From a virus (lineage: Duplodnaviria > Heunggongvirae > Uroviricota > Caudoviricetes): 5,058 nt of DNA. A program made the translations under genes and the position numbers. The stretch's first letter is position 1; each line of letters starts with the position of its first letter. This document shows positions 1-5,058 of the stretch, piece by piece. Under the pieces are notes generated by a model. That model was not told the DNA's origin. It searched no databases and saw nothing but the letters and a program-made list of their open reading frames with translations. The stretch lies in IMG/VR virus record IMGVR_UViG_2693429560_000008; one strand, written 5' to 3'.

Positions 1-25
1 GGGAAAAATATCATCAGATGGCTGC

Positions 26-214
26 TTAAAAAAAGAACAAATGGTAGTGTCCGCTATTGCCAGTACACCTCAGGGTATAAGGGGTTATGGCCACCGGACT
101 ACCAAACGGCTGCCAGCCCTCTTTCAGTTTATGTGTCAGCTTTTCCGCAAGATCTGACGGCGGCGCCGCCCTGACAACATCATAGTGTTTAAATGCCATG
201 GTTCTTTCCACCAT
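26..214 (-). CDS. small prophage protein, possibly DUF1737-like
   Basis: Minus-strand ORF from the track. The second in-frame ATG (197-199) follows a GGAAAG RBS-like sequence, so the true start is probably 199 (MAFKHYDVV..., 57 aa). The stretch LAEKLTHKLKEGWQPFG resembles the short phage DUF1737 family from memory only. Confidence 0.45.
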   Translation of the reverse strand: MVERTMAFKHYDVVRAAPPSDLAEKLTHKLKEGWQPFGSPVAITPYTLRCTGNSGHYHLFFF

Positions 215-392
215 CTGAAAAATAATTCTTTAAAATACCTGACATGTAATACAGAAAAAACACAAAACCATACCTTAAATAAAAACCTGATTATCAAGCA
301 GATATGCATGGATAAACTACAAGACGAGATATAAACCACCCTGCATTTAAATAAACAATAAACAACATCAGAAAAATAATTCTGCTCTATGG

Positions 393-419
393 TTTACATT
401 CAAAAATATCATTTATACT
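393..419 (+). promoter_or_regulatory. putative sigma70-type promoter for the 111-aa ORF
   Basis: -35 TTTACA (393-398) and -10 TATACT (414-419) with a 15-nt spacer, about 40 nt upstream of ATG 460, in an AT-rich intergenic region. The short spacer makes this tentative. Confidence 0.3.
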
Positions 420-459
420 TTTCAGAACATCACCAGCAAGGCATAAACAAGGAAACTAA

Positions 460-795
460 ATGAAGTGGATTGTGATTGATACAGTTATCCAGCCATCATG
501 CGGAATATCTTTTTCAGTCATATGGAGTAAAATAAAATTAATAATCTGGTATCAATCGGATGCTTTCTTACCTCCTGAAAGTATATTTACACTGACTCAC
601 ACAGGCATCATGCTCAATAACAAAGTGCTACCTGTAACCATTTACAACGTAGTACCATTCAATAAAACATTCTGGAATTCAATCAAAAATAGCCAGGAAT
701 GCCCTACAAATACAGATAACGTATTGAATGAATGCTTTAATAACCGTTGCACTCTGCAAATATGTCCTTATGGACTAAAACAACAAAGTCCATAA
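460..795 (+). CDS. hypothetical protein, 111 aa, AT-rich cargo gene (copy 1)
   Basis: 336-nt ORF open in strongly AT-rich DNA where stops should be frequent. AGGA lies 6 nt before the ATG. An identical copy sits at 1834-2169. Five Cys residues; no family recognised. Confidence 0.5.
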
Positions 796-814
796 GGAGT
801 TTACTCACATCTGA

Positions 815-851
815 CAAAATCAATATAAACAGCCCCTCCGGAGAGGGGCTG
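815..851 (-). terminator. intrinsic terminator-like hairpin, minus-strand orientation
   Basis: Perfect 9-bp GC-rich stem (830-838 with 843-851) and 4-nt loop. On the minus strand it is followed by the U-rich run GUUUAUAUUGAUUUUG. Confidence 0.4.
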
Positions 852-1046
852 GAGAGTGGCGCTATGTGCCATTGCATGGTGCCGGGTGCCTCCCGGTGAA
901 TTCAGTACCAGCACCTGAATCCGCGATTATCCCATATACCTACTCGCTGATTGCCCCTCCGCACAGGGGGATTCACCATGCCAGTTTCTTTTAACAAACT
1001 CCCCGCAAAACAGACAACTGTCAACCGTCTGAATTGTGAGACATTT

Positions 1047-1072
1047 AAAAAAAAGGCCCGCAAAAGCGAGCC
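1047..1072 (-). terminator. intrinsic terminator just downstream of the copy-1 tRNA cluster
   Basis: On the minus strand: stem GGCUCGC, loop UUUU, stem GCGGGCC (one G-U pair), followed by eight U. Lies in the 36-bp copy-1-specific spacer; absent from copy 2. Confidence 0.5.
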
Positions 1073-1086
1073 AGGGAAAATAAGTG

Positions 1087-1163
1087 TGGCGCGTTGTACT
1101 GGATTCGAACCAGTGACCGATTGCTTAGAAGGCAATTGCTCTGTCCGGCTGAGCTAACAACGC
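1087..1163 (-). tRNA. argO: tRNA-Arg, anticodon TCT (copy 1)
   Basis: 77-nt cloverleaf folded by hand from the reverse complement: acceptor GCGTTGT/ACAACGC, T-loop TTCGAAT, anticodon loop CTTCTAA, encoded CCA. Symbol assigned from the Stx-phage ileZ-argN-argO order, from memory. Confidence 0.85.
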
Positions 1164-1176
1164 ATGATGCAGATAA

Positions 1177-1253
1177 TGGACCGCCATCGGGGACTTGAAC
1201 CCCGCGCAGCCAGCTTCGAAGGCTGGCGCTCTTTCCTGATGAGCTAATGGCGG
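1177..1253 (-). tRNA. argN: tRNA-Arg, anticodon TCG (copy 1)
   Basis: 77-nt cloverleaf: acceptor CCGCCAT/ATGGCGG, D-stem GCTC/GAGC, anticodon stem CCAGC/GCTGG with loop CTTCGAA, T-loop TTCAAGT, encoded CCA. Unusual C1-G72 first pair. Symbol from cluster order, less certain. Confidence 0.75.
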
Positions 1254-1260
1254 TATGTGA

Positions 1261-1336
1261 TGGTGGCCCTTGCTGGATTTGAACCAGCGACCTGGCGATT
1301 ATGAGTCGCTCGCTCTCACCACTGAGCTAAAGGGCC
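1261..1336 (-). tRNA. ileZ: tRNA-Ile2, anticodon CAT (lysidine type, reads AUA), copy 1
   Basis: 76-nt cloverleaf GGCCCTTTAGCTCAGTGG...CTCATAA...GGTTCAAATCC...AAGGGCCACCA, very close to E. coli ileX-type tRNA-Ile2 as recalled. Anticodon loop CTCATAA. Confidence 0.85.
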
Positions 1337-1376
1337 GGGAGCCGCATAATAACGACGCGTAATTAATTCTTCAATA

Positions 1377-1743
1377 TCATCCGTTCTGGCTGACTAAATC
1401 CTGTACTTCCCGAACCGTCTGCTCAAAACGTTCAGTCTCCAGCTCAACGCCAATTGCACGACGCCCGAGCGCCAGTGCCGCTTTCACTGTCGAACCCAAC
1501 CCCATGAAAAAATCTGCAATCAGGTCACCCGGACGACTGCTAGCGCTGATTATCTGCTGCAGCATTTCTGCCGGTTTTTCGCACGGATGTTTCCCGGGAT
1601 AGAACTGCACCGGTTTATGCGTCCACACATCGGTATACGGCACCTGCACCGTCACGCCAAAATACCGCCGCAGATGTTTATATTCACTCAGCAGCTCCGC
1701 ATACTGCCGGTTCAGTGAGGTATACGTATCCACCAGCTGGTGG
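1377..1743 (-). pseudogene. 3'-terminal fragment of the N6-adenine DNA methyltransferase gene
   Basis: Encodes only the last ~122 codons of the 352-aa protein (the 118-aa track ORF begins at an in-frame GTG at 1731-1733), identical to the full copy. Keeps the FxGxG AdoMet motif but lacks the N-terminal DPPY catalytic motif. Broken at 1743/1744 where block A copy 2 begins. Confidence 0.8.
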
Positions 1744-1766
1744 AGAAAAATAATTCTGCTCTATGG

Positions 1767-1793
1767 TTTACATTCAAAAATATCATTTATACT
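1767..1793 (+). promoter_or_regulatory. putative promoter for the 111-aa ORF, copy 2
   Basis: Identical to 393-419: TTTACA, 15 nt, TATACT. Confidence 0.3.
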
Positions 1794-1833
1794 TTTCAGA
1801 ACATCACCAGCAAGGCATAAACAAGGAAACTAA

Positions 1834-2169
1834 ATGAAGTGGATTGTGATTGATACAGTTATCCAGCCATCATGCGGAATATCTTTTTCAGTCATATGGA
1901 GTAAAATAAAATTAATAATCTGGTATCAATCGGATGCTTTCTTACCTCCTGAAAGTATATTTACACTGACTCACACAGGCATCATGCTCAATAACAAAGT
2001 GCTACCTGTAACCATTTACAACGTAGTACCATTCAATAAAACATTCTGGAATTCAATCAAAAATAGCCAGGAATGCCCTACAAATACAGATAACGTATTG
2101 AATGAATGCTTTAATAACCGTTGCACTCTGCAAATATGTCCTTATGGACTAAAACAACAAAGTCCATAA
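1834..2169 (+). CDS. hypothetical protein, 111 aa, AT-rich cargo gene (copy 2)
   Basis: Identical to the ORF at 460-795. Confidence 0.5.
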
Positions 2170-2188
2170 GGAGTTTACTCACATCTGA

Positions 2189-2225
2189 CAAAATCAATAT
2201 AAACAGCCCCTCCGGAGAGGGGCTG
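2189..2225 (-). terminator. intrinsic terminator-like hairpin, copy 2
   Basis: Identical to 815-851. Confidence 0.4.
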
Positions 2226-2449
2226 GAGAGTGGCGCTATGTGCCATTGCATGGTGCCGGGTGCCTCCCGGTGAATTCAGTACCAGCACCTGAATCCGCGA
2301 TTATCCCATATACCTACTCGCTGATTGCCCCTCCGCACAGGGGGATTCACCATGCCAGTTTCTTTTAACAAACTCCCCGCAAACCAGACAACAGTCAACC
2401 GCCTGAATTGTGAAGTATTTAAAAATTTCTCCCGCTAACTGATACCCGG

Positions 2450-2536
2450 CTAACAGTCTGGCGTTTTCTTTTTCAGCAACGGGAAAGCAACAACCACCAC
2501 ACCCGCCACCAGCACACCGTCAGCCAGCACTGACAT
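2450..2536 (-). CDS. possible 28-aa hydrophobic peptide
   Basis: Hand translation of the minus strand gives ATG...TAG: MSVLADGVLVAGVVVVAFPLLKKKTPDC, one hydrophobic stretch then KKK. No convincing RBS; could be a chance ORF in GC-rich low-complexity sequence. Confidence 0.15.
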   Translation of the reverse strand: MSVLADGVLVAGVVVVAFPLLKKKTPDC

Positions 2537-2616
2537 TATCCGGCTGCTGCAATGCCATTCACAAAAACAGTAAGCAATCACTTTTTACCGTAACAGGTGA
2601 TAATCCAGATATGTAT

Positions 2617-2970
2617 CTACCCCAGATGAGTAATCCGAAGTTCATCCATACCACAGGTCCTGGCTATTCTGTTGTACTCCTGAACAAGAGCAAATAATTC
2701 TGAATTAGCAACCATGAACTCATCGCAAACCCTCTGTATAGCATCACTATTCAGAATAATAACGTCTCTTCCCGAAAGACGATCAGGAGTACAGAACAAA
2801 ACTGTCAAACGGCTGAAGGCCTTTGCTCGTGCTGCATTGACTATATCAATACGCTGCCTAAGGATGAAACACCCCGACGCCTCATCAATATTCACTCTAC
2901 CCACACCATATGAATGATAAATATTTAATGCTGAAAAAACCATTAGACCGTATAACAAACACTCAATCAA
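2617..2970 (-). CDS. hypothetical protein, 108-117 aa, copy-2-specific cargo
   Basis: Minus-strand ORF from the track, which begins at a TTG. The first ATG is at 2941-2943 (MVFSALNIYHSYG...). Weak RBS. Lies directly downstream of the tRNA cluster in the slot where Stx phages carry stx, but has no resemblance to Stx A or B. Confidence 0.4.
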   Translation of the reverse strand: MIECLLYGLMVFSALNIYHSYGVGRVNIDEASGCFILRQRIDIVNAARAKAFSRLTVLFCTPDRLSGRDVIILNSDAIQRVCDEFMVANSELFALVQEYNRIARTCGMDELRITHLG

Positions 2971-3080
2971 TACTTAACAGAACTTTTATTTTTGACAAAC
3001 ATAAAATATTTTCAACAATATCCTGAGCCAGGTATATTTCAGTATAAGGCTCTGCCGGAAGGAATCTGGAAGAATGAATA

Positions 3081-3157
3081 TGGCGCGCTGTACTGGATTC
3101 GAACCAGTGACCGATTGCTTAGAAGGCAATTGCTCTGTCCGGCTGAGCTAACAACGC
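3081..3157 (-). tRNA. argO: tRNA-Arg, anticodon TCT (copy 2)
   Basis: Same as 1087-1163 except tRNA position 69 is G instead of A, turning the U4-A69 pair into a U4-G69 wobble. Confidence 0.85.
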
Positions 3158-3170
3158 ATGATGCAGATAA

Positions 3171-3247
3171 TGGACCGCCATCGGGGACTTGAACCCCGCG
3201 CAGCCAGCTTCGAAGGCTGGCGCTCTTTCCTGATGAGCTAATGGCGG
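3171..3247 (-). tRNA. argN: tRNA-Arg, anticodon TCG (copy 2)
   Basis: Identical to 1177-1253. Confidence 0.75.
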
Positions 3248-3254
3248 TATGTGA

Positions 3255-3330
3255 TGGTGGCCCTTGCTGGATTTGAACCAGCGACCTGGCGATTATGAGT
3301 CGCTCGCTCTCACCACTGAGCTAAAGGGCC
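3255..3330 (-). tRNA. ileZ: tRNA-Ile2, anticodon CAT (copy 2)
   Basis: Identical to 1261-1336. Confidence 0.85.
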
Positions 3331-3370
3331 GGGAGCCGCATAATAACGACGCGTAATTAATTCTTCAATA

Positions 3371-4429
3371 TCATCCGTTCTGGCTGACTAAATCCTGTAC
3401 TTCCCGAACCGTCTGCTCAAAACGTTCAGTCTCCAGCTCAACGCCAATTGCACGACGCCCGAGCGCCAGTGCCGCTTTCACTGTCGAACCCAACCCCATG
3501 AAAAAATCTGCAATCAGGTCACCCGGACGACTGCTAGCGCTGATTATCTGCTGCAGCATTTCTGCCGGTTTTTCGCACGGATGTTTCCCGGGATAGAACT
3601 GCACCGGTTTATGCGTCCACACATCGGTATACGGCACCTGCACCGTCACGCCAAAATACCGCCGCAGATGTTTATATTCACTCAGCAGCTCCGCATACTG
3701 CCGGTTCAGTGAGGTATACGTATCCACCAGCTGGTGGTGGAGCTTTTCCAGTTCACCACGCCGATGCTTCTCTTCTGCCACCCGGGCAAACAGCGCCTGT
3801 AATTTCAGATAATCGCTTTCATTCGGCAACTGCCACTGACCGGCACTGAACCAGTGCGACACCATGTTTTTCTTTCCTGTGGCATCTGCAATCTGTTTTG
3901 CCGTTATCCCCAGGGCAGCTCGCGCATCACGAAAGTAAGAAATCAGCGGGGCCATCACATGCTGTTTCAGTGCACTGCCCTTCGCCGCATACCCGGCATC
4001 TTTCGGACGATACGGCCCCTGATAATGTTCCGCGAACAGAATGCGCTCTGTGGCGGGGAAATACGCCCGCAGGCTTTCCTTGTTGCATCCGTTCCAGCGT
4101 CCGGACGGCTTCGCCCAGATAATATGGTTCAGCACACTGAAGCGTTCACGCATCATGATTTCGATATCAGATGCCAGGCGATGACCACAGAACAGGTAAA
4201 GACTTCCGGCAGGTTTCAGCACCCGCCAGAACTGCGCCAGACACTGGTCCAGCCACTTCAGGTAATCATCGTCGCCCTTCCACTGGTTATCCCAGCCCTC
4301 AGGCTTCACTTTAAAGTACGGCGGGTCCGTGACTATCAGGTCAACAGAATTTTCGGGTAACGACCGGATAAATTCCAGGCAGTCGGCGTTGATTAACTCA
4401 CAACTGGATATTTTTACAGTATTAAGCAT
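3371..4429 (-). CDS. N6-adenine DNA methyltransferase, beta-class, apparently orphan
   Basis: 352-aa ORF. Catalytic motif DPPY near the N-terminus (LIVTDPPY) and AdoMet-binding motif DFFMGLGST near the C-terminus; that motif order defines beta-class amino-methyltransferases. No restriction endonuclease partner in the window. Confidence 0.9.
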   Translation of the reverse strand: MLNTVKISSCELINADCLEFIRSLPENSVDLIVTDPPYFKVKPEGWDNQWKGDDDYLKWLDQCLAQFWRVLKPAGSLYLFCGHRLASDIEIMMRERFSVLNHIIWAKPSGRWNGCNKESLRAYFPATERILFAEHYQGPYRPKDAGYAAKGSALKQHVMAPLISYFRDARAALGITAKQIADATGKKNMVSHWFSAGQWQLPNESDYLKLQALFARVAEEKHRRGELEKLHHQLVDTYTSLNRQYAELLSEYKHLRRYFGVTVQVPYTDVWTHKPVQFYPGKHPCEKPAEMLQQIISASSRPGDLIADFFMGLGSTVKAALALGRRAIGVELETERFEQTVREVQDLVSQNG

Positions 4430-4461
4430 GGATCATTAAGCCTGTCTCTGATAGGCTCATT

Positions 4462-4551
4462 CTGCTTTTGCGCAAAGCAGTGGGCCTGAGGTTTGCTTGT
4501 GAACCCAACGCATGAGCAGATGGCTGGTGGGTGCCCCTAACACCCACCAGC
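4462..4551. promoter_or_regulatory. inverted repeats in the leader upstream of the methyltransferase gene
   Basis: Perfect 11-bp inverted repeat GCTGGTGGGTG / CACCCACCAGC (4523-4533, 4541-4551) with a 7-nt spacer, and a 7-bp inverted repeat CTGCTTT / AAAGCAG (4462-4468, 4474-4480). Neither is followed by a U-tract on either strand. Confidence 0.3.
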
Positions 4552-4565
4552 CGCCCATTTACCAC

Positions 4566-4593
4566 AAATAAAAAAGCCTTCACTGCGGAAGGC
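4566..4593 (-). terminator. intrinsic terminator after the 65-aa gene
   Basis: Minus strand: stem GCCUUC, loop CGCAGU, stem GAAGGC, followed by UUUUUUAUUU. The stem overlaps the stop codon of the 65-aa ORF. Confidence 0.5.
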
Positions 4594-4777
4594 GTCTGTA
4601 ACAACCGAACTGATAGTCTGCCAGACCCGCCATAACCAGCTGGGTCAGTATTAACTGGCAGCGTTCGCGTGAAAGGTAAGTATTCTGCGCTATCTCCCCG
4701 ACTGTCGCCGGTTCGGTAACGCTTAATTCATTAAACACCACTCTGGCGGTTTCTGTCATATCCTGCTGTTTTAGCAT
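4580..4777 (-). CDS. small putative DNA-binding protein, 65 aa
   Basis: AGGA sits 6 nt upstream of the ATG. The pattern TVGEIAQNTYLSRERCQLILTQLVMAGL is helix-turn-helix-like and weakly resembles FaeA/PapI-type winged-helix regulators, from memory. Confidence 0.5.
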   Translation of the reverse strand: MLKQQDMTETARVVFNELSVTEPATVGEIAQNTYLSRERCQLILTQLVMAGLADYQFGCYRRLPQ

Positions 4778-4896
4778 GTCTTTTCCTTTTCCGGTTAACG
4801 TGACACACCAATAACTCTTGTCGAAAAAGCCAGCAAGCTGAAAGACAGGTATTCACCGCCACCAGCGCGTTTACTGTACTGACGCGATTTCAGTCA

Positions 4897-4920
4897 TAAA
4901 AAACCCGCTCGGCGGCGGGT
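4897..4920 (-). terminator. tR'-like intrinsic terminator
   Basis: Minus strand: stem ACCCGC, loop CGCCGA, stem GCGGGU, followed by UUUUUU. About 65 nt downstream of the putative pR'. Confidence 0.55.
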
Positions 4921-4968
4921 TGTAGAAACTCTTCTAACGTCAGGCATAAAACGCCCATCGTTATGACG

Positions 4969-5001: not shown

Positions 5002-5058
5002 TTACCTAGTTACCTTTTTTAACTGCCGCTCAGCCCATGCTTCTTCAATATCAAACCG
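5002..5058 (-). CDS. 3' end of an upstream minus-strand gene, possibly the Q antiterminator (partial)
   Basis: Two minus-strand frames stay open to the window edge: one ends ...RFDIEEAWAERQLKKVTR with stop at 5002-5004, the other ...GLILKKHGLSGS with stop at 5019-5021. The frame cannot be resolved. Identity is inferred only from position upstream of the pR'-like promoter. Confidence 0.2.
   Translation of the reverse strand, partial: RFDIEEAWAERQLKKVTR

Follow-up and report, generated by a model that had tools for sequence, protein, structure and literature searches.

The window, by which we mean the whole stretch of 5,058 nucleotides analyzed, can be recognized in its minus-strand reading as the late-operon region of a lambdoid E. 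coli prophage. As presented in Table 1, it holds in this direction the end of the antiterminator gene Q, a pR'-like region with a tR'-like terminator, a 65-aa ORF and an N6-adenine methyltransferase gene, followed by a tRNA trio of the order pT-ileZ-argN-argO, a variable slot, an STnc100 sRNA gene, a convergent IraM gene and a nanS-p remnant. The tR'-like terminator matches by its position the pR'/terminator layout annotated in phage SC370 (GenBank AF548457). The same late-region setting is annotated in near-identical single-copy loci of RefSeq E. coli genomes and of phages, where nanS-p/DUF1737 and then the lysis genes follow beyond IraM.

Using an ungapped self-comparison, we observed two tandem units of 1374 and 1994 bp in window 370-3737. 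Block 370-1051 is the same as 1744-2425 except for six mismatches, at 1010, 1019, 1028 and 1040-1042, and block 1087-1743 is the same as 3081-3737 except for a single one, 1094 T vs 3088 C. Between these matching blocks lie 35 bp in copy 1 (1052-1086) and 655 bp in copy 2 (2426-3080), referred to below as the short and the long allele of the slot. A previous reading of this DNA, made from its letters alone (the sequence-only reading), had described segments of 36 and 656 bp at the same place, which is correct within the 1 bp by which the alignment is ambiguous. The flanks do not differ at any position over 640 and 649 bp, and all the differences fall in a central patch (1010-1094 / 2384-3088). 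A simple tandem duplication, with copies either identical or evenly diverged, was rejected, as the central patch is replaced and the flanks are perfect.

Table 1. Features of the window, with their positions, strand and the evidence used to place them.
Feature	Position	Strand	Evidence
IraM-family anti-adaptor gene	copy 1 460..795; copy 2 1834-2169	+	NF007393, 162 bits vs cutoff 121; RefSeq annotation
STnc100-family sRNA gene (RF02076)	copy 1 821..1010; copy 2 2195..2384	-	Rfam covariance model
Conserved block upstream of the STnc100 Rfam 5' end, reaching the slot boundary	1011..1051	-	Allele alignment
Putative intrinsic terminator of the tRNA unit (hairpin 1072-1055, U8 1054-1047)	1047..1072	-	Motif and folding
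tRNA 3' trailer between tRNA-Arg(TCT) and hairpin, short allele	1073..1086	-	Sequence comparison
tRNA cluster, copy 1, ileZ-argN-argO type	1087..1336	-	ARAGORN, Rfam tRNA, RefSeq/phage annotation
tRNAs of copy 1	Ile2(CAT) 1261-1336; Arg(TCG) 1177-1253; Arg(TCT) 1087-1163	-	ARAGORN
Promoter-like site upstream of ileZ, TTGAAG-17-TATTAT	1346..1374; second copy 3340-3368	-	Promoter-motif match
N6-adenine DNA methyltransferase, 3' fragment cut at junction 1743/1744	1377..1743	-	Self-comparison
Long allele, two-gene insert in place of the terminator hairpin	2426..3080	-	Self-comparison
43-aa DUF3927 (TciB-like) small hydrophobic protein gene	2450..2581	-	PF13064, phrog_1470
phrog_2873 protein gene, 108 aa (ATG 2943) or 92 aa (GTG 2895)	2617..2943	-	phrog profile
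Promoter-like site upstream of the phrog_2873 gene, TTGAAA-16-AAAAAT, weak (9/12)	2988..3015	-	
tRNA cluster, copy 2	3081..3330	-	ARAGORN and self-comparison
N6-adenine DNA methyltransferase gene, complete, late region, downstream of Q	3371..4429	-	Profile match and annotation
tR'-like terminator directly downstream of the Q end (~5002)	4902..4921	-	Hairpin folding and related annotation
Antiterminator Q, final codons	~5002-5058	-	Annotation of related loci

ARAGORN called two sets of three minus-strand tRNA genes, Ile2/Met-CAT, Arg-TCG and Arg-TCT. The sole difference between the sets is the mismatch at 1094/3088, located in the acceptor stem of tRNA-Arg(TCT). Working out pair 4-69 by hand gives U-A for copy 1 and U-G for copy 2. 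In our survey of related loci (see below), the 3088 C variant mostly accompanies the long allele. The promoter-like site upstream of ileZ aligns by eye with the element annotated in AF548457 as 'pT, putative tRNA promoter'; across the window, the count of promoter-like matches is not above that obtained with shuffled sequence.

The short allele consists essentially of a hairpin, GGCUCGC-UUUU-GCGGGCC, with a 7-bp stem (6 G-C pairs), a 4-nt loop and a U8 tract, which begins 15 nt past the 3' end of tRNA-Arg(TCT) in the same orientation as the tRNA unit. Its minimum free energy is -14.3 kcal/mol (z = -3.98), and 0/200 shuffles fold equally well. The sequence-only reading had described a textbook intrinsic terminator at this place on the minus strand, after tRNA-Arg(TCT), and the motif, the folding energy and the z-score all confirm it. 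Among the surveyed loci, a stem of 6-7 bp is kept in all 14 sequence variants of the terminator, two of the stem changes yielding G-U pairs with the pairing not broken. The trailer that separates the tRNA from the hairpin shows weak similarity with its counterparts in the long allele (3065-3080) and in Stx2 phages.

The same element is present in Shiga toxin phages. In phage SC370 (AF548457), the identical hairpin after argO is annotated as a 'possible rho-independent terminator', in a record which also lists pR', a putative tRNA promoter 'pT', ileZ, argN and argO. In phage Stx2a_WGPS8 (AP012540), the hairpin after argO (GGCTCGCTTTTGCGGGCC followed by a T-run) is succeeded by stx2A and stx2B, and beyond stx2B we found a 70%-identical homologue of window 70-1043, the alignment stopping at 1043, which is the slot boundary. 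This argO-hairpin-stx2A arrangement was found in 255 phage records, nearly all of them Stx2-converting. Since the hairpin directly precedes stx2A in these phages and is already annotated there, the short allele can be understood as an empty slot. The hairpin itself is better read as a putative terminator of the tRNA unit, active in the uninduced prophage. This reading is supported by its position after argO and directly before stx2A in Stx2a_WGPS8 and in the 255 phage records, its joint annotation with pT and the three tRNAs in AF548457, its retention next to the tRNA in other alleles that carry their cargo beyond it (the 1427/1428-bp and 1125-bp forms described below), and the preservation of the stem in every natural variant, including those with G-U replacements.

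In the long allele, the place of the hairpin is taken by two genes. The protein encoded by the larger one matches phrog_2873 over profile positions 1-108 of 108 (E 3.8e-70), and its ORF is intact, with 98-100% identity, in all the long alleles surveyed. Homologues were found in E. coli and Shigella only and form two subgroups that are ~57% identical; against a 57%-identical homologue, likewise encoded downstream of this methyltransferase and next to an AraC-type regulator, the dN/dS ratio is 0.26, which indicates purifying selection. We regard the phrog_2873 ORF as a real gene on these grounds. The sequence-only reading had given the ORF as 117 aa, which corresponds to a start at TTG 2970. The start is more likely ATG 2943 or GTG 2895, and the diverged homologue begins at the GTG equivalent to 2895. 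The second gene, encoding a DUF3927 protein of 43 aa (2581-2450), had been overlooked in that reading, which described a single ORF in the insert; it is matched by PF13064 with 95.6 bits against a cutoff of 25, and by phrog_1470 with an E-value of 7.8e-13.

The phrog_2873 gene is absent from the annotation of the RefSeq genomes inspected (cf. L001 7138-7638). An AlphaFold2 model of its protein is a helical hairpin (pLDDT 76), for which the comparison with the PDB gave only non-significant coiled-coil matches; a sequence search of the PDB was likewise without significant match. A defence-system or named-family identity for the two inserted proteins was considered and rejected, as the PADLOC and NCBIfam searches gave no match for either the phrog_2873 or the DUF3927 protein. 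At 2186-3279 of another locus (L127), a homologue with a 57%-identical product follows the same small ORF and methyltransferase and lies beside an AraC-type regulator, on a contig on which no tRNA genes were called. This different neighborhood suggests that the gene moves between slot contexts.

The composition and the edges of the insert were analyzed as well. Its GC content is 41.5%, whereas the adjacent flank has 50.4% and the methyltransferase gene 53%. At neither edge of the long allele does a hairpin fold beyond what shuffles give (z -0.18 and -0.58); the former value applies to the sequence after the DUF3927 gene, where the next terminator is that of STnc100. Searching for a remnant of the short segment in the whole insert by local alignment gave a result at chance, and the comparisons anchored at the ends were weakly significant. 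Next to the tRNA, 9 of 16 trailer positions match between the short and long alleles, a figure already given in the sequence-only reading and modestly above chance, as ~0.7% of the positions in the insert equal it. The left-anchored residue matches at 11 of 24 positions, again above chance (~1%).

On the other side of the slot, both copies carry a gene for an STnc100-family sRNA, matched over the full length of the model with 133.6 bits in copy 1 and 132.4 bits in copy 2, for a gathering score of 47. Its 3' hairpin (851-830 and 2225-2204; -20.3 kcal/mol, z -4.7) also ends the convergent IraM gene. Because the Rfam match is full-length, the left flank of the slot can be identified as a known prophage sRNA; the sequence-only reading had the coordinates of this flank right but took it for anonymous sequence and missed the gene. 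In Stx2 phages, an sRNA of the STnc100 family is reported to lie 75 nt downstream of stx2 (PMC12370729), and STnc100 has been related to PasD, upstream of a sialate esterase gene (bioRxiv 10.64898/2026.05.13.724894).

The STnc100 match begins with position 1010. Between this position and the slot boundary, the conserved block holds the other SNPs of the left flank (1019, 1028 and 1040-1042). This block, TCACAATTCAG-N-C-N-GTTGAC(A/T)GTTG, is kept in all the alleles, even in the 70%-identical homologue from Stx2 phages, and the A/T-rich boundary ATTTAAAA is common to all of them. The conserved block may be the reason why the slot boundary lies at this position. A motif scan and inspection of 1011-1051 revealed no convincing -10/-35 pair of a sigma-70 promoter for STnc100. 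Directly upstream of the sRNA, we observed in all the alleles an inverted repeat, CAGAC-N11-GTCTG (1011-1032 / 2385-2406, minus strand), in which SNP 1028 turns an A-U pair into a G-U pair, so that the pairing is not lost. The conservation of this repeat, together with the pairing-preserving SNP, suggests that STnc100 or its control region reaches further upstream than the Rfam model.

The sequence-only reading had counted six mismatches in 1010-1042, and this count is exact. It had also described a graded divergence of the flank, which does not hold for the three outer positions. Among the ~52 short alleles surveyed, the bases at 1010/1019/1028 are C-A-C in 34, A-T-T in 10 and C-A-T in 6. Every long allele carries C-A-C, and A-T-T is the combination of copy 1 of the window. 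These three SNPs thus represent an independent flank haplotype, since most short alleles carry the long-allele bases. Only the triplet 1040-1042 (GAC vs AGT) and the tRNA trailer track the allele, and they always differ between short and long.

We then classed 120 IMG/VR loci, retrieved by an exact 31-mer from the left flank, by the content of the slot up to the next tRNA. The short form, empty apart from the terminator and with an A-run of 7-9, accounts for ~52 loci. The 656-bp form, with the phrog_2873 and 43-aa DUF3927 genes and no tRNA-adjacent hairpin, was found in ~29 complete loci and additionally in truncated contigs. Two loci (L036, L039) carry a TerB/TciB-type form of 1427/1428 bp with four ORFs, including a TerB-like one of 167 aa and the full 54-aa DUF3927, and one locus carries a methyltransferase-type form of 1125 bp with a 331-aa methyltransferase-like ORF. 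Both of these forms retain the tRNA-adjacent hairpin and have their cargo beyond its U-tract, as in Stx2 phages. Several loci carry other forms, with no tRNA within 4 kb, to which the presence of a tRNA-adjacent hairpin is not applicable. With stx2AB, at least five fillings of the slot are found in ~120 related loci. The short and long forms contrasted in the sequence-only reading thus both recur among related prophages, together with further fillings.

Both alleles are also frequent in complete genomes. With a threshold of at least 80% coverage, the short query (960-1163) was found in 1011 and the long query (2334-3157) in 1182 of 5426 complete E. coli genomes. They can be present in one genome at different prophages, for example in the O104:H4 strain FDAARGOS_401. 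Among isolated phages, Nil3 has the short arrangement and mEp460 the long one, phage mEp460_ev081 matching the long query over its full length at 99.3%. The long allele is mostly accompanied by two tRNAs and the short allele by three; the window and the O104:H4 strains pair the long allele with three.

The comparison of the fillings informs on the structure of the long allele. It has in common with the 1428-bp allele only its first 169 nt (92% identity), which comprise the 3' 28 codons of DUF3927 and the downstream boundary, and the last ~98 nt, made of 8 nt of trailer and the tRNA. As only these end regions are common, the DUF3927 end is probably the common property and the ~520-bp phrog_2873 part a replacement, which would have taken the place of the remainder of a TerB/TciB-type cassette plus the terminator hairpin. 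The long allele can therefore be described as itself a mosaic two-gene moron. The TerB/TciB-type allele differs from it by a longer DUF3927, additional ORFs and the retained terminator.

Taken together, these observations define a multi-allelic 'moron' slot between the tRNA unit and the STnc100 gene. Its fillings occur in combination with different tRNA sets and flanks, which indicates lambdoid mosaicism. We consider it likely, with good though not full confidence, that the short allele is the empty slot with the tRNA-unit terminator and the long allele a mosaic phrog_2873 and DUF3927 moron in a lambdoid late region. The exchange of mosaic modules, as opposed to a clean insertion or deletion, had been proposed in the sequence-only reading, and it is upheld by the diverged edges, the many fillings, and the variety of tRNA sets and flanks. 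The size polymorphism at a single site could also result from an IS- or MITE-like mobile element inserted into the terminator, or from its precise excision, and IS3-family elements are active nearby (window 1-72, and L016 at the same slot boundary). However, the insert has no terminal inverted repeats or other terminal repeats, no target-site duplication at its ends (2426 and 3080) and no transposase, its edges are diverged and not sharp, and its DUF3927 end is common to another, larger allele, so that we hold a mobile element for highly improbable.

A further question concerns polarity. The short allele may be derived, by deletion of cargo such as stx2AB, a Tci-type cassette or similar between the U-tract and the block upstream of STnc100. 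The terminator-retaining long alleles and the Stx2 phages indeed carry their cargo exactly between the U-tract and the conserved block, and the A/T-rich boundary found in all the alleles is in line with such a deletion. However, an insertion into an empty slot fits equally, and the weak similarity of the edges suits either polarity. We thus view a derived short allele as plausible without favoring it. It is compatible with the reading of the short form as an empty slot and of the long form as a mosaic moron, and bears on polarity only.

From the sequence and from the annotation of homologous phages, we infer the following scheme for promoters, termination and read-through. In an uninduced lysogen with the short allele, tRNA-unit transcripts from pT would stop 15-40 nt after argO, and the terminator would insulate STnc100. 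If the long allele is present, transcription starting at pT or at the weak internal promoter-like site (3015-2988) would cross both genes and end at the STnc100 terminator. As nothing would stop transcripts before this terminator, a single transcript could span the tRNAs, the inserted genes and the sRNA region. After induction, Q-modified polymerase is expected to read through either allele.

In Stx phages, stx2 is a late, Q-dependent gene. This bears on the role given to the copy 1 hairpin in the sequence-only reading, that of a valve on late transcription initiated at pR', through which the alleles would deliver unequal amounts of late transcript to the downstream cargo. The hairpin is a strong, canonical terminator, is oriented with late transcription and is absent from the long allele, which speaks for such a valve. 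However, the Q end, the pR'-like region and the tR'-like terminator lie upstream in the same operon, and polymerase modified by Q ignores terminators, reading through those located downstream (PMC8065619, PMC6266700). In addition, the identical hairpin before stx2A in the 255 Stx phage records does not prevent Q-dependent expression of the toxin, and both copies have a stronger terminator (that of STnc100) ~200 bp downstream. Read-through by Q-modified polymerase, the stx2A precedent and the common downstream terminator make an allele difference in the delivery of late transcript unlikely. The earlier claim to this effect is thus poorly supported, and there is little probability that the hairpin acts as a late valve. 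A terminator of the tRNA unit in the uninduced prophage remains our preferred reading of this hairpin.

The locus can be compared to two known systems. Like Stx2-converting phages (933W type, SC370 and Stx2a_WGPS8), it has a tRNA trio with a pT annotated in these phages, an identical terminator hairpin 14-15 nt after argO, and an STnc100-family sRNA as left landmark of the slot, followed by nanS-p. In contrast to these phages, the slot is empty in copy 1 and holds phrog_2873 and DUF3927 in copy 2, instead of stx2AB; copy 2 is without the terminator hairpin; and the window has a methyltransferase gene between Q and the tRNAs and IraM beyond the sRNA. Lambdoid morons are additional genes lying between conserved late ones, and they often have a promoter and a terminator of their own (PMC8065619). 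The insert resembles them by its presence or absence in relatives at a fixed position of the late region, including in isolated phages, by a GC content below that of the flank, and by small genes without obvious phage function. It differs from them in that no terminator of its own was found in the insert and its only promoter-like site is weak (9/12), in that it appears to use the terminator of the sRNA, and in that the terminator of the tRNA unit is displaced.

Overall, the short and long forms appear as common alternatives in the slot which, in toxin phages, is occupied by the Shiga toxin genes. As both are common fillings of a known post-tRNA slot, the finding is real but ordinary. Gain and loss of morons at such a position is textbook lambdoid mosaicism. 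Since, moreover, both alleles are widespread and the terminator was already annotated in Stx2 phages, we give the polymorphism little weight as a discovery. Its value lies in a map, in which the stx2 slot exists in ordinary E. coli prophages as an empty, terminator-only form and as several other filled forms. The limits of the slot are argO with the terminator at one end and, at the opposite end, the conserved block preceding STnc100. Such a map could aid the annotation of stx-negative relatives of Stx phages, and it raises the question whether the content of the slot affects the expression of STnc100.

The unusual feature of the window is its tandem arrangement, which is separate from the slot polymorphism and might not be genuine. 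Junction 1743/1744 (GGTGG/AGAAAAAT) fuses an internal position of the methyltransferase gene with sequence upstream of IraM. Searches with a 32-mer and a 21-mer found this junction in none of the 5426 complete E. coli genomes, phage records, IMG/VR contigs, metagenome contigs and GTDB representatives. The flanks are of mixed ancestry: the left one is nearest to long-allele loci (L057, 99.8%), and the right one is nearest to short-allele loci (99.85%), its identity with long-allele loci being only 93%. In the survey, the A-T-T short haplotype is normally without the IraM flank.

The tandem could be a chimera of assembly or cloning, or a consensus built from two separate prophages of one strain; the two copies would then be the alleles of two prophages. 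The absence of the junction from every collection searched is in line with such an artefact, as is the coexistence of short and long alleles in single genomes at separate prophages. The flanks, moreover, are 100% identical over 640 and 649 bp, and natural short and long loci differ there by 1-7%. Direct reading of the junction shows, however, neither microhomology nor a common k-mer that could mislead a graph assembler, and the same picture would result from a true illegitimate tandem duplication with later patch conversion by a co-resident prophage. We therefore consider an artefact possible but somewhat unlikely. A real heteroallelic tandem, which would have arisen from a recent ~1.4-2 kb duplication of IraM, STnc100, the slot and the tRNAs and a subsequent patch conversion from a co-resident prophage, leaving STnc100 in two wirings, seems to us doubtful. 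If it were real, this stretch would hold six tRNA genes, two IraM genes and two STnc100 genes. Of the two sRNA copies, one would be insulated by the tRNA terminator and the other would form the 3' end of a phrog_2873-DUF3927 transcript, and what the slot contains (nothing, a moron or stx2) would set how STnc100 is made.

Some minor observations concern the surroundings of the duplicated units. A 21-nt direct repeat, CAnCATCnGAAAAATAATTCT, is found upstream of IraM at 209-229 and 363-383, and the left end of the duplication (370) lies inside its second copy. The IraM cassette (window ~200-831; cf. L083, L002) is itself present or absent among prophages, and in some short-allele prophages (E. 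coli 55989, L083) the STnc100 region runs to nanS-p without IraM. Window 1-72 represents one end of an IS3-family element: the identical 72 nt flank transposase ORFs in L016 (IMGVR_UViG_2681813268_000014) and recur in L057, L083 and L086. The DUF1737/nanS-p N-terminal ORF of the window (214-26) runs into this end and is cut by it. In L016, an IS3-family element (~3080-4800) is located exactly at the slot boundary, after ...CTGAATTGTGA, with the STnc100 region on both sides of it, which represents a second, different rearrangement at the same spot.
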